Assembly: GCA_048270185.1 (NCBI GenBank)
Contig: JBLWTJ010000001.1
Location: 1,312,001-1,376,000, forward strand
Direction: 5' to 3'
DNA from: Bacteriovoracaceae bacterium
Lineage (GTDB): Bacteria > Bdellovibrionota > Bacteriovoracia > Bacteriovoracales > Bacteriovoracaceae
DNA: 64,000 nt
Below, piece by piece: positions 20,633 through 29,890 of the stretch. The notes beneath the pieces were generated by a model. That model did not search any database, was not told the origin of the DNA, and saw only the letters and a program-made list of their open reading frames with translations. How positions within the stretch are numbered: the stretch's first letter is position 1; every line of letters begins with the position of its first letter. The translations under genes were made by a program, and so were the position numbers.

Positions 20633-20650
20633 TGGTTCCAGGTGCCTTTT
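20633..20650. repeat. 18-bp inverted repeat on one side of the RAYT gene
   Basis: TGGTTCCAGGTGCCTTTT matches the reverse complement of 21656-21673 at 17 of 18 positions. Confidence 0.8.
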
Positions 20651-20793: not shown

Positions 20794-21513
20794 TTAAAAC
20801 AGAGAAATTTGATTTGAATTTGCGTTCTGTATAGGAACAATCTCTTCCCATAGACTAACATACTTAATGTATTTTGGATGAATCACTTCTGGTTCAACAA
20901 TTCTATTTCGAGAATCCTTTCCATAGCGAAAATCAGGCCTCAATAAACCTTGAGAAATGCTTCTATCTTCATCTGTATTGAAACTAATATTTAACCACTC
21001 TAGAGCATCACTTGCTCGATACAAATCAAAAGCAAATAAATCGACTAGCTCAGAATTAGAAAACGGGGTCTCAGGACCAAATAAAGAACAAGTCGAATAA
21101 GGATACATTTGAACTTCAGAGACAAGACTCGCCTTAACAGGGTTTCGTAAAATATACTTGTAAGTATTTGCTCTATAACTTGATTTGGTTAACAAAGAAG
21201 ATTTATATCTACCACCGTAAATTGAGTTTAACACTCCTGCCTTTTTTTGCACTTCTAGTGTTGTCATCTTCATTACCCAGTACATAACTTCATCAATATT
21301 TGCCATGGGAGTTTCGAGCATTAAATGGAAATGATTATTCATTAGTGTAAAGGCATATATTTTCACATTATAATCCCTAACAACTTTCTCTAATGCACTT
21401 AAATAAACCCTCCACATCTGTTTGATAGGCAATGGAAACCAAGTTTTATTATGTGATCTAGCAACAACATGATAAGGATATTTGTTAGTTCTTAATGTTT
21501 TTCTACGCCCCAT
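20794..21513 (-). mobile_element. REP-associated tyrosine transposase (RAYT, Y1/HUH family)
   Basis: YHVVARSHNK, HUH motif MNNHFHL, GRYKS, catalytic YILRNPVKA and YPYST. No adjacent tnpB. Confidence 0.88.
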
Positions 21514-21655
21514 ATTTCACCTCTTACGATATTAACGAGCAAGAAGCTGTAAACTTTAATAAAGATAAGTATCTGAAAGTTTTAAACATTACAGACTATA
21601 TTTAAAAAAACATTAAAATATACATATAAAAAACATGAAAACACATAGCGCAAAG

Positions 21656-23915: not shown

Positions 23916-24734
23916 ATGAAATTAGTTCTATCAATTGTGACGATACTTCTTATGAATACGGCCCTTGCTGGTCTCATTGGAACCGTCCCTTCTAAAGACA
24001 AAATCCTTACTCGCATTGATAAGACAACAACTTCAAATTCGGCCCTTTCATCTCGTATCAAGATCGCCGTTTGGAATATGTATAAAGGTAAGAAGCTTAG
24101 TTGGTATCGTGACTACCAAGATCTACTTGCTGATAGTGATATCATTCTTGGACAAGAATTCTTCTTAAAAGACTCAATGAAGTCGGCCTTAGAGAATCCA
24201 TACCAGAGAGAAAATATTCTCGCGACTTCTTTCTTAAATAAAGAAGGAATCGCCACTGGCGTTTTCACAAGCTCAAGCGTTAAGGCCAAGAGTGCACAAG
24301 CTTTCCAAAGTATTGATCGCGAGCCAGTGGCCAACACACCAAAACTTTCTCTTATTACAACTTACCCACTTGAGAGTGGACAGACGCTAACGATTGTTAA
24401 TATCCACGCCCTAAACTTTGTAGGCATAAATCCATTCTTTAAGCAAGTCAACGAACTGATTAAAGCAGTCAAAAAACTTAAAGGCCCAGTGGTTTTTGCA
24501 GGTGATTTTAATACAAATGCTCCTTCTAAGACTCTTTCAATGAAGATGTTATTTAAAGGTGCGGGCTTTAAGGAAGTTAAATTCTCAGGTAAAGATTCTC
24601 GTATGACGTTCCTCGGCCAAAAGCTTGACCATATTTGGTACCGCGGTCTAGAGCTAGTGGATGCAAGAGTGTTAGGAAATGTTGACGGTTCTGACCATAA
24701 GCCGATGCACGCAATTTTTGACACCATCGAATAA
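23916..24734 (+). CDS. Secreted endonuclease/exonuclease/phosphatase (EEP, YafD-like)
   Basis: Signal peptide, WNMYKG, LGQE, NIHALNF, AGDFN, LDHIWYRGL and SDH. Confidence 0.88.
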   Translation: MKLVLSIVTILLMNTALAGLIGTVPSKDKILTRIDKTTTSNSALSSRIKIAVWNMYKGKKLSWYRDYQDLLADSDIILGQEFFLKDSMKSALENPYQRENILATSFLNKEGIATGVFTSSSVKAKSAQAFQSIDREPVANTPKLSLITTYPLESGQTLTIVNIHALNFVGINPFFKQVNELIKAVKKLKGPVVFAGDFNTNAPSKTLSMKMLFKGAGFKEVKFSGKDSRMTFLGQKLDHIWYRGLELVDARVLGNVDGSDHKPMHAIFDTIE

Positions 24735-24788
24735 TCTCAGCGATAATAGACATTAAATAAATAATTTATTCAGACAAAAGGATTTGTT

Positions 24789-25625
24789 GTGAAAAAAATT
24801 GCATTAAGCATAATGCTTGCGATGTCGACACTTGCAAGCTCAAATATCAGTACAAAATCACTTCTTCATAAAATACCAAGCATCAATAATGTCATCGATT
24901 ACAAATCAAATGTAAGCTGCCCGACTTGCTACTTCCCAAATGAGTTCACGGTAACGGCATGGAATATGTACAAGGGAAAGAATGAAAGCTGGGAAAGTGA
25001 TTTCGATGCACTTCTTGCTGAAAGTGATATCCTGCTTGGCCAAGAGTTTATCCTAAAAGATGTCATGAAGGATCGTCTGCAAACCCCAGTTGATGAAGAT
25101 ATCGTTCTTGCCACTTCTTTTGTAAGTTTTAAAAAGTACAAAACAGGTGTGACTAATATTTCAAAATTTGCGACGTCTTTAATCACTCCCCTTCGAAGTG
25201 ATGTTAAAGAGCCTTTCATTGGCACGCCAAAAATGGTTCTTTCAACTCAGTATGAATTAGAAGACGGGCGCCCAATTACTTTCATCAATATCCACGCCAT
25301 CAACTTCGTGGCCAAGAGAAAGCTTAAGAAGCAACTTAAGCAAGTTATGAAACATATCAATTCGACAACAGGCCCTGTGGTCTTTGCCGGAGACTTCAAT
25401 ACAAATTCAAAGAAGAAAATTCGCATGATGCGCGAGCTCCTAACGTCAATTGGATTCCAAGAGGCCGTCTTCATAGGTCGTGATGATCGTATGAAATGGC
25501 TTGGAAATAAACTGGACTATATTTGGTATCGTGGGCTTGAGCTAATCGAAGCTCGTGTGCGCGGTGAGGTTCAGGGCGCTGACCATAAACCTCTGCAGGC
25601 GACGTTCAAAGTTATTAACGAATAA
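24789..25625 (+). CDS. Secreted EEP-family protein, tandem paralogue
   Basis: Same motifs: WNMYKG, LGQE, AGDFN, LDYIWYRGL and ADH. Confidence 0.88.
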   Translation: MKKIALSIMLAMSTLASSNISTKSLLHKIPSINNVIDYKSNVSCPTCYFPNEFTVTAWNMYKGKNESWESDFDALLAESDILLGQEFILKDVMKDRLQTPVDEDIVLATSFVSFKKYKTGVTNISKFATSLITPLRSDVKEPFIGTPKMVLSTQYELEDGRPITFINIHAINFVAKRKLKKQLKQVMKHINSTTGPVVFAGDFNTNSKKKIRMMRELLTSIGFQEAVFIGRDDRMKWLGNKLDYIWYRGLELIEARVRGEVQGADHKPLQATFKVINE

Positions 25626-27905: not shown

Positions 27906-29048
27906 ATGTGGTATTTCACTGAAGAAGAAAAACAAATCCAAAAAATGTGTCGCGACTTCGCTAGACAAGAATTAGCACCAGTTGCAGAAAAGCATGACAC
28001 AGATGAAACATTCAACATGGATGCCTTCAAAAAAATGGGTGAAATTGGAGTTCTTGGAATTACTGCAGACCCTGAATATGGCGGAGCTGGAATGGGTGCT
28101 CTTGCTGCAACAATTGTCATGGAAGAATTTGGTAAAGCTTGTGCTTCTTCAACTCTTTCATACCTTGCTCACTCAATTCTTTGTGTGAACAATATCGAAA
28201 ACAACGCTTCAAAAGAACAAAAAGAAAAATATCTTCCAAAGCTTATCACTGGTGAGCACATCGGTTGTATGGGTATGTCTGAGCCAGAATACGGATCGGA
28301 TGCAGTAGGTATTCAAACAAAAGCAGAAAAGAAAGACGACCACTATCTTCTAAATGGTACGAAGATGTGGATCACAAATGCTCAGTATGCAGATATCGCT
28401 TACGTTTACACAAGAACAGGAAAAGAGAGAAAGAACCTTTCAACTTTCATTCTTGAAAAAGACAAGGGACACTTCGACTTTGGTAGCCCAATCCACAAAA
28501 TGGGTATGCGTGCATCACCTACTGGTGAGCTAATCTTTGACAACGCTAAAGTTGGTCTTGAGCAACTTGTTGGTAACGAAGGTGACTCAATTTATCACAT
28601 GATGAAAAACCTTGAGATCGAAAGAATCACGATCGCAGGTATCTCACTTGGTATCGCACAAGCTTGTGTTGATCAGTGTATTAAATATGCTAACGAAAGA
28701 TCACAATTTGGAAAAAATATTGGTGAATACCAAATGATCCAAAAAATGATCGCAGAGATGGCAACTGAAACTGAAATGATGAGAAACTTCCTCTACAACG
28801 TAGCTTACCGTTACGATCAAGGAGAGAAGGGGCCAGTTGTAGCAGCTCAAGTTAAGCTAGCTATTCCAAAGATGGCAACAAAAATTGCACTTGATGCTAT
28901 CCAACTTCACGGTGGATATGGTTACTCAAGAGAGTTCCCAGTTGAGCGCATGATGAGAGATAATAAACTTAATGAAATTGGTGCTGGTACTAATGAGGTA
29001 ATGATTATGATCATTGCTAAGAATCTACTTAAGGCAGCACAGGCATAG
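27906..29048 (+). CDS. Acyl-CoA dehydrogenase, isovaleryl-CoA dehydrogenase-like
   Basis: GMSEPEYGSDA, NGTKMWITN, KMGMRASPTGELIF, GGYGY and EIGAGTNE. Confidence 0.92.
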   Translation: MWYFTEEEKQIQKMCRDFARQELAPVAEKHDTDETFNMDAFKKMGEIGVLGITADPEYGGAGMGALAATIVMEEFGKACASSTLSYLAHSILCVNNIENNASKEQKEKYLPKLITGEHIGCMGMSEPEYGSDAVGIQTKAEKKDDHYLLNGTKMWITNAQYADIAYVYTRTGKERKNLSTFILEKDKGHFDFGSPIHKMGMRASPTGELIFDNAKVGLEQLVGNEGDSIYHMMKNLEIERITIAGISLGIAQACVDQCIKYANERSQFGKNIGEYQMIQKMIAEMATETEMMRNFLYNVAYRYDQGEKGPVVAAQVKLAIPKMATKIALDAIQLHGGYGYSREFPVERMMRDNKLNEIGAGTNEVMIMIIAKNLLKAAQA

Positions 29049-29188
29049 ATGGTCTCCGCCCATGCATCGCTGACGTTGCGACGTCGCGATTGCACAACGG
29101 TAAAGCTGCTCGTCATAATGCTCTCGCATGATGACGCCCGCAGATTATGATCATTGCTAAGAATCTACTTAAGGCGGCGCAAGCTTAA
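29003..29188. repeat. 46-bp duplication of the gene 3' end (29003-29048 and 29143-29188) flanking a 94-bp GC-rich hairpin insert
   Basis: The first 33 bp are identical; the remaining 13 bp have 5 differences, all at third codon positions. Confidence 0.92.
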
Positions 29189-29890
29189 TTAAAGCTCAAG
29201 CCCGCCCGCTTTCCAATCACCTATACTTGATTCACGGTCAGCTTCATTCTTGCTGGCCGGAACTCTATTGAAATTCTTTTGAACAGGCGCCACAGGAGTG
29301 GAACCAAATTTAACTGTGTGGCGTGAAGAAGTTGGAGCTTCAACAGTTTTTACTTTATCAACTTCGGCCATCATTTTACGTCCCATACGATTAATTGTAT
29401 CTGTACTTGCACGGTTATGAGCATCAAGACGTTGTTGGTAGTTCTTCTCCATTGCTGCAAGTTTTTGCTTATATTCAAGCGCTGACATTTTCACTTTCTT
29501 CAAGTTTTCTAATTCAGTCGTCACCGCTGCAAGATCAGACTTACTCTTTTCAATAATGGCCTTAAGCGAATTGACGTGTGCGACTTTATGACCAAGTGTT
29601 TGCTTAGCGATATCTTGGATCTTCTTATCGGCCATGTACTTCATGCGCTCCATTTTTAACTTGTCGATCTCACTACCTAATTCAAGGTTTGCTTGAGAAA
29701 GAGATTCAATTTGCGCATTCTTTTTAAACTGACCAAAACCAAGCATCACTGCACAGGCAAGTAGAGCGATATTTGTTGCAGAAAAGATACTACTACTTCC
29801 CTTCTTAGATTTCTTGGCCTTTGATTTCTTCACTCTCTTAGAGTGAACGACGTTCTTGTGTTGTGGTCTAAATTCTTTTAGCGTTTCCAT
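29189..29890 (-). CDS. Single-TM coiled-coil hypothetical protein
   Basis: Basic N-terminus, one TM, coiled coil and an RVPAS motif. Confidence 0.7.
   Translation of the reverse strand: METLKEFRPQHKNVVHSKRVKKSKAKKSKKGSSSIFSATNIALLACAVMLGFGQFKKNAQIESLSQANLELGSEIDKLKMERMKYMADKKIQDIAKQTLGHKVAHVNSLKAIIEKSKSDLAAVTTELENLKKVKMSALEYKQKLAAMEKNYQQRLDAHNRASTDTINRMGRKMMAEVDKVKTVEAPTSSRHTVKFGSTPVAPVQKNFNRVPASKNEADRESSIGDWKAGGLEL

Follow-up and report, generated by a model that had tools for sequence, protein, structure and literature searches.

The window, i.e., the whole 64,000-nucleotide stretch of a Bacteriovoracaceae genome considered here, contains an acyl-CoA dehydrogenase gene whose last 46 nt recur 140 bp downstream, directly before a convergent gene, with no gap existing between the two genes apart from the insert (Table 1). 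The first 33 nt of the two 46-nt copies are identical, after which five differences are found (copy 1/copy 2: GCA/GCG, GCA/GCG, CAG/CAA, GCA/GCT, and TAG/TAA). All five are silent, with both copies translating to IMIIAKNLLKAAQA followed by a stop codon; an all-silent outcome for five randomly placed changes has a probability of 0.0006–0.0013. The dehydrogenase protein is unchanged by the insertion. The 94-nt spacer between the copies presents a GC content of 57.4%, as compared to 36.6% for the genome, and 0.04% of 94-nt windows are as GC-rich. It codes for nothing, the frames containing stops or offering no long ORF across the spacer, and holds no mobile-element gene. Counting directly from the sequence thus bore out the initial annotation in terms of the 46-bp repeat, the five silent changes, and the GC-rich 94-bp spacer.

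Table 1. Features of the duplicated gene end and its surroundings (window coordinates; qualifiers as argued in the text).
Feature	Position	Strand	Remarks
Intact gene for acyl-CoA dehydrogenase (380 aa), with copy 1 as its end	27906–29048	+	99% identical protein in G002, G004, and G011
Copy 1, working gene end, putatively incoming	29003–29048	+	Five relatives ending in Q-x-stop use neither CAG nor TAG
Overlap zone, last three codons of copy 1 (CAG GCA TAG)	29040–29048	+	7/9 bases as in element left flank; AG lies in element motif
Two-hairpin non-coding element	29049–29142	-	- strand folds better
Hairpin 1, near-invariant base CCGCCCATGC / GCACAACGG (on +), variable covarying top	29056–29100	-	G-T pairs close the base on -
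Unpaired linker, TAAA on +	29101–29104	-	Invariant in 28 aligned copies
Hairpin 2 (GC...GC) and terminal A, fixed right end	29105–29142	-	No microhomology at the joint with copy 2
Copy 2, putative resident end, now stranded	29143–29188	+	Abuts stop codon of convergent gene
Convergent gene, 233 aa, end intact, no Pfam match	29189–29890	-	Homologues in G002, G004, and G011

Assembly support and the probable resident gene end

Runs X1 and X3, coming from two studies, each provided one 167-nt contig covering positions 29006–29172 with 0 differences from the window, while their flanks presented 1–5 SNPs. From a third study (run X7), a 211-nt contig over positions 29077–29280, with 1 difference, bridges the element, copy 2, and the next gene. 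The locus was not bridged in runs X4, X9, X14, and X19, of which X14 and X19 correspond to a related organism containing other genes after the dehydrogenase. RNA run X6 covers positions 29143–29511 and is uninformative on expression. Mis-assembly joining two strain haplotypes, a check for which had been advised from the outset, could be envisaged, as the genome was probably assembled from a metagenome and the 33-bp repeat interrupts the public contigs. Yet, given the identical junction contigs from two studies, the bridging contig from a third, and the same layout in 15 other copies of the element family, the probability of such an event is close to nil; an assembly chimera is very unlikely, with these contig-level data being compatible with a minority empty allele. 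In runs X1 and X3, the depth of the 167-nt contig was 38.5 vs. 26–28 and 9.8 vs. 7–8 for the flanks, respectively. Behind this 1.2–1.4-fold excess there may be a GC bias or an amplification of the 140-bp unit in tandem.

Neither the element nor a second gene end was detected behind the dehydrogenase gene in any of 22 relatives (0/22), and neither an empty nor a donor allele of the window locus was found among the relatives and run contigs examined. In G002, G004, and G011, 1–21 kb of other genes lie behind the dehydrogenase. At the same time, copy 2 agrees in its CAA and TAA with all five relatives whose protein ends in Q-x-stop. Empty sites without the insert were identified at other targets of the element, namely, tRNA-Ser (5/5 relatives), tRNA-Thr (three of the five relatives listed), and tRNA-Arg alleles. 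Most of the empty tRNA-Ser and tRNA-Thr alleles share motifs with the copy-2 flank and not with the insert. Because of the CAA and TAA used by relatives and the likeness of empty alleles to the copy-2 flank, copy 2 is likely the resident end. The view put forward in the initial annotation, namely, that the two ends differ in origin and that incoming DNA completed the gene, was thus sustained, both by the CAA and TAA of the five relatives and by repeats that stop together with conserved sequence, as described below.

The silent differences call for more caution. The AG of the copy 1 stop codon (TAG) is part of an element motif, AG[AC]TGGTC, found in 16 of 20 distinct flanks. Moreover, three fpg copies, one of which is in the source genome, have CAGGCnnAG as their left flank, these being the sole other matches in 237 genomes. 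Judging from these matches, as many as three of the five silent differences could have come from the element. With only two differences then being independent, both of them silent (P ~0.05), the argument from silent changes is weaker here. As such, the earlier contention that these changes reveal both copies to have been under coding selection holds in that all five are silent, but loses force for those that may have come with the element. A diversity-generating retroelement was also considered as the source of the differences and rejected, since these are not limited to adenines.

A dispersed two-hairpin family with a fixed right end

Rather than standing alone as a one-off insert, the spacer is a member of a dispersed family. 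BLAST revealed the element at other loci in 26 of 200 other genomes of the family Bacteriovoracaceae, and a covariance model detected 1–13 copies each in 26 of 150 genomes of the same family, and none in 124 genomes that belong to other families of the phylum. The genome-wide search that had been proposed returned one full copy in the source genome (G000), together with a left-end remnant before fpg. In the GTDB collection, a two-motif pattern matched 29 stretches, of which 27 are titled Bacteriovoracaceae, Oligoflexia, or Bdellovibrionota and one is a chance match; the remaining stretch is a typical copy under an alphaproteobacterial title and is probably mislabelled. In metagenomes, the same pattern likewise matched 29 stretches, including at least one chance match, and viral contigs gave none. 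A shorter pattern gave three matches in viral contigs, the two inspected being chance matches in GC-rich coding DNA. The element matched none of the Rfam family models and nothing among the plasmids or phages searched. A literature search, conducted mostly without subscription papers, returned no prior description of the family, nor was such a repeat found in those parts of the B. marinus genome paper that were available (PMC3526173). Apparently, this is an undescribed dispersed two-hairpin family of predatory Bacteriovoracaceae.

The structure of the element was addressed in an alignment of 28 short-type copies, with copies presenting long insertions, an extra hairpin, or an unclear end being left out. 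In this alignment, 19 of 31 pairs change on both sides and 93% of the cells are paired, a level reached by 0 of 500 shuffles and compared with 27–49% in slid controls; the 31-pair structure was, however, written by hand from the same sequences, with an unaided consensus giving 11 of 19 pairs. Twenty-two columns are invariant, the unpaired linker included. It is this covariation, and not the single-sequence z score, that supports the fold, the window spacer folding only modestly when considered alone (z of -1.57 on the + strand and -2.76 on the - strand). Of the three structures initially described, the third, corresponding to hairpin 2 (stem region 29105–29141), is the conserved one. The first hairpin and the palindrome both belong to one long stem, i.e., hairpin 1, and copy 2 begins with what had been taken as the last G of GCAG in the third structure.

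The strand that folds is the - strand, it being the better folder in 68 of 73 copies. When hairpin-2 loops are read on this strand, 21 of 72 are GNNA tetraloops and 23 are triloops ending in A, whereas GNNA is seen 0 times on the + strand. Loops of the GNNA type and the like are stable in DNA as well as in RNA. Relative to neighboring genes, the folding strand is antisense to the dehydrogenase gene and fpg but sense to tmRNA, and this lack of fixed orientation favors DNA over RNA. As such, very little credence is given to the idea of a structured RNA that acts as stabiliser or terminator at gene ends, with the duplications arising as by-products. The GNRA loops, the G-U pairs on one strand, and the position between gapless convergent genes would agree with such an RNA; opposed to it, besides the orientation just described, are the absence of a terminator-like site and of any Rfam match, and the rule governing the joint, which it leaves unexplained.

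That rule concerns the right end of the element, where the terminal GC of hairpin 2 is followed by A in 66 of 75 copies. A direct repeat (counted at a score of at least 12) starts at the very base after this end in 16 of 77 distinct copies (14 sites), as compared to 2 of 1,417 control positions, although the 77 copies are not independent, with some sharing a target or lineage. These were drawn from 80 distinct copies with a defined end, 77 of which had enough flank; dropped from the test were four model matches without linker, 11 without a defined end, and three that were short. No repeat is detectable in 61 of the 77. In 15 of the 16 repeat-bearing copies, the joint is without left microhomology and, likewise in 15 of 16, a pyrimidine precedes the cut, with nothing else being common to the 14 unrelated sites. 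Repeat length ranges from 13 to more than 117 bp in the family, and several repeats are perfect. The left end of the element, by contrast, is not fixed, with most inserts comprising the repeat, 7–30 nt, and the element core.

The element occurs in both orientations at its targets, which include tRNA 3' and 5' ends, tmRNA, the starts and ends of protein-encoding genes, and Rhs cores. The cut falls between positions 13 and 14 in three different tRNAs. Other copies abut the CCA of tmRNA, tRNA-Leu, or tRNA-Val, or contribute the A with which the fpg start codon begins. Some pairs of copies enclose 4–6 kb of cargo, as seen at fpg, ssb, and tmRNA. At six of the 14 sites, the repeat has its far end on, or no more than ~9 nt away from, a functional boundary, this being a stop codon (the window and L181), a tRNA 5' end (L093, L193, and L186/L191), or a ribosome-binding site (L184). 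At the other eight sites, three repeats run into remnants of a second element and five could not be assigned to a boundary. Repeats that halt at functional boundaries are to be expected of two alleles from diverged genomes, a staggered cut having no cause to halt there.

This last point bears on de novo transposition with a long staggered target duplication, which we regard as unlikely. In such an event, 37 bp would have been duplicated in the window, the left end of the element (CAGGC..AG) would have provided Q-A-stop, and two later point mutations would have given rise to the GCA/GCG differences. Transposition of this sort would agree with the blunt and fixed right end, the makeup of most inserts, the 7/9 match to the fpg-type left flank, the AG motif, and the perfect repeats. 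It is less readily reconciled with a left end that is not fixed, with the six of 14 repeats ending at functional boundaries, or with both GCA/GCG changes being silent and adjacent; moreover, a recoded metK tail in the same genome (see below) cannot be neutral decay, though a different element is involved there.

Several copies present unusual arrangements. At L096, L102, and L116, the right end of the element is fused to the linker of another copy, creating chains of hairpin 2. At L061 (G008, beside tmRNA), modules of three hairpin families are mixed in one stretch. At L092 and L095, the element lies within a tRNA-Pro-like 3' half that is followed by an inverted piece of the same tRNA, an arrangement seen twice in one genome. 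Finally, at L109, L113, and L129, the element directly precedes orphan Rhs core fragments, with a repeat of at least 117 bp and a 1.1-kb insert, a placement that suggests a role in Rhs tip replacement.

Candidate routes of insertion

The explanation that we prefer, and to which we assign an even chance of being correct, holds the insert to be one copy of a two-hairpin repeat with a fixed right end that arrived on the DNA of a diverged relative, behind the same gene. It builds on the family and its fold, on the blunt fixed right end and the repeat that starts from that end, and on the empty sites of relatives that match the downstream flank; from these, we infer four steps. The - strand would first fold as single-stranded DNA, and its 5' end (TGC...) would then be joined to a 3'-OH in the resident gene end, 46 bp before the stop codon. 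The other side would next be settled by homology with the shared gene end, with the incoming DNA acting either as a linear strand or as a small circle crossing over. In this manner, the incoming end would complete the gene, leaving the resident end stranded, and the left motif of the element probably shaped the last codons of the incoming end. As for the catalyst, the most likely candidate is a nick-and-join enzyme of the HUH type, the gene for which would lie elsewhere in the genome; that a protein takes part is suggested by the invariant motifs. HUH enzymes make one-ended nick-and-join joints, according to the accessible portion of PMC8266576, and single crossover of a re-circularised incoming fragment gives rise to duplications in Escherichia coli, according to that of PMC3240628.

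Several observations stand against this explanation. No enzyme is linked to the element, 61 of the 77 copies are without a repeat, and neither the empty nor the donor allele of the locus was found. Repeats of 13–20 bp are, moreover, short for homologous recombination, and GNRA loops suit RNA as much as they do DNA. Lastly, the replication-strand bias expected of IS200/IS605-type single-strand transposition is absent (25 of 48 loci by local GC skew, the 9-kb sign of which equals the 100-kb sign in 90%).

The search for an enzyme relied on the Y1, integrase, and reverse transcriptase proteins of the source genome, which matched in only three of 90 element loci (648 kb); a Y1 match was obtained at one locus and integrase-like matches at two, neither lying between repeats. 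Pfam analysis of 71 of 201 representative neighboring proteins revealed one Y1 and one ISL3 transposase, but no integrase and no restriction-modification family. The source genome contains four Y1 genes, each with its own short inverted repeats and none with the element beside it, and neither the single reverse transcriptase gene nor any of the eight integrase-family genes is found near the element. Although Y1 genes are present in 24 of 26 element-bearing genomes vs. 83 of 124 others (Fisher p = 0.008, with the genomes being non-independent and the comparison confounded by kinship), the genome with the most copies (G016; 13 copies) yielded no Y1 match. Thus, the element is tracked by neither an integrase nor a transposase. 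The preferred explanation finds support, on the other hand, in the recoded spare end of metK, described below, and in the presence of a ComEC-type gene. In the window itself, a RAYT-like Y1 gene (20794–21516, - strand) is accompanied by a 12-bp inverted repeat at positions 20634 and 21661 that is found nowhere else in the genome.

Integrase islands carry a replacement 3' end, and integrative elements bounded by attL/attR replace the 3' end of a gene. The likeness to an attL/attR pair, originally drawn from the window sequence, stands insofar as an incoming, silently different end completes the gene, with the old end being found downstream. It fails in that neither an integrase nor a common att core is present and in that the targets are unrelated and used in both orientations. 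For similar reasons, we attach a low probability to the insert being the relic of an ordinary integrase island that retained attL/attR and lost its interior, an outcome of which the initial annotation had warned. Many copies do lie where islands classically insert, namely, at the 3' ends of tmRNA and tRNA genes, some pairs enclose cargo, as noted above, and the replacement 3' end is of the kind that islands carry. Nonetheless, the end of the element is all that at least 14 unrelated targets, used in both orientations, have in common, and cuts between tRNA positions 13 and 14 with duplication of the 5' end are atypical of integrase sites. Furthermore, no integrase was found in the cargo examined, and none was matched over 15–31 kb at the locus in G002, G004, and G011, where no duplicate gene end was seen either.

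It is also conceivable, if rather improbable, that no dedicated enzyme is involved. In this scenario, the GC-rich hairpin would cap an incoming single strand against exonucleases, and host repair would join or circularise the strand prior to crossover. The absence of a linked enzyme, a joint located one base from the foot of the hairpin, and the presence in the source genome of three other hairpin sequences with the same layout would all agree with such capping, as would the accessible text of PMC3240628, where RecJ is said to possibly destroy the 5' end required for illegitimate joining and where duplications arise from re-circularised fragments. Homology-facilitated illegitimate recombination and crossover of a re-circularised fragment, as presented there, resemble the layout described here in combining homology on one side with a non-homologous joint on the other, the circle giving duplications. 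They differ in that the joint is not set by a sequence element, and in that the classic form involves deletions with microhomology; such 3–10-bp microhomology deletions are absent here (PMC3240628, accessible text). In addition, the 22 invariant columns, the conserved terminal A, and the pyrimidine preference suggest specific recognition.

Returning to a route relying on an enzyme acting in trans, a guide-like match was noted between the 10 nt ending before the left motif and the reverse complement of the cut site. At three of 12 testable sites, this match is centered on the cut and comprises 10, 9, and 8 of 10 positions, as compared to a background of 5 of 754 at 8 or more (binomial P ~6e-5, an optimistic value since the pattern had been spotted by eye before the test). 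At the other nine of the 12 sites, the window included (4/10), as well as at 50 repeat-less copies, only background was seen. The guide-like stretch is missing from four empty tRNA-Arg alleles, and two copies in one genome have the same flank save for a 6-nt block that matches the target of each. A 7-nt match between the window target and a hairpin-2 arm is not significant, with such matches occurring in 3 of 54 copies vs. a 2% background. The stretch may act as a guide, or insertion may leave it behind as a templated by-product. A bolder proposal, which we consider a long shot, is that the element serves as the recognition end for a homing system, as yet undescribed, that acts on single strands and is directed by a guide. 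Here, an enzyme provided in trans would cut at the fixed foot of hairpin 2, a second cut would be directed by pairing with the variable 8–10-nt stretch at the foot of hairpin 1, and a unit comprising gene end, optional cargo, and element would move between lineages, exchanging gene ends, Rhs tips, and small cassettes with no integrase involved. Should the target-matching sequence at the three sites prove functional, it would represent a new natural way of programming DNA insertion.

Comparison with known systems and other hairpin layouts

Insertions with long target duplication have been on record for 25 years, to our knowledge without demonstration of a mechanism; earlier work on such insertions is reportedly that of Nobusato and co-workers in 2000. 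The element works like these. In the portion of Furuta, Abe, and Kobayashi (2010; PMC2853133) that was available, the inserts are restriction-modification genes, and double-strand breakage is proposed. Both cases involve long, variable direct repeats (44–47 bp in several of theirs and 46 bp in the window, as against a threshold of 30 bp), inserts without a mobility gene, and repeats that often span a start or stop and leave the gene intact. According to the same text, the hosts there are mostly naturally competent. In the present case, by contrast, the insert is a constant 94-bp non-coding hairpin family with a base-precise end and usually no genes. The mechanism can be put to a direct test with this family, for which the substrate (94 nt), the strand that folds, and the exact base of the joint are defined, sites are available both with and without the insert, and the host genome encodes four Y1 proteins as candidates. 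Moreover, it would account for the acquisition of small cassettes by these predators, and for the exchange of gene ends or Rhs tips at conserved genes, with no need for integrases.

REP, REPIN, and BIME sequences, served by RAYT enzymes, are likewise short extragenic hairpin repeats with bulged stems, one strand of which is recognised, as far as the accessible parts of PMC3116915 and PMC8266576 relate. They also occur as tandem units that include flanking DNA and have no gene of their own (PMC3116915, accessible part), and the host considered here contains four Y1 genes. Still, the GTAG/GGAG foot is missing here (5 of 54 at the left end and 3 of 54 at the right end), and the C|T joining rule fails, with the base joined to the T of the element being C in 12 of 58 distinct targets, the window included, and A in 26 of 58. 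The 1–13 copies per genome, not clustered at Y1 genes and with long target repeats, also differ from the hundreds described for REP sequences in the text consulted. IS200/IS605 derivatives, as presented in the accessible part of PMC8266576, share with the element a pair of sub-terminal hairpins and a precise end, together with a foot sequence complementary to the cut site, which the element presents at three sites. They differ in that the element has no fixed 4–5-nt target, no fixed left end, and no lagging-strand bias, generates long duplications, and contains a complementary stretch that is 8–10 nt long and varies with the target. Turning to integrons, attC sites carry the core pair RYYYAAC ... 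GTTRRRY at their two ends. This pair was found in 0 of 75 copies of the element, and an attC assignment was rejected.

Other hairpin sequences in the source genome present similar layouts. At L177 (G000:C1:1425500–1425950), the spare end of metK is heavily recoded, including an AGC/TCT change, around a different, dispersed hairpin element. At L179 (G000:C1:541446–541630), the 3' end of a tRNA-Leu gene is present twice, as 40-bp copies that lie 144 bp apart and enclose a further GC-rich hairpin sequence. A third hairpin family occurs in tandem at L178 (G000:C1:686369–686800) and L180 (C4:227027), with a duplicated 20-codon gene end at L178.

Where only the left end of the element remains before fpg (L059:5005–5090; G000:C1:1063704 on), the gene reads ATC CCT GAG, as opposed to ATG CCA GAA in relatives, and the nearest upstream ATG adds eight residues before the N-terminal proline. 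Fpg needs this N-terminal proline. On the basis of sequence, Fpg in the source genome may be impaired or its synthesis started at an unusual codon. Elsewhere in the window, positions 23916–25625 (+ strand) contain two tandem related ORFs of 272 and 278 aa that, by eye, have the look of endonuclease/exonuclease/phosphatase proteins.
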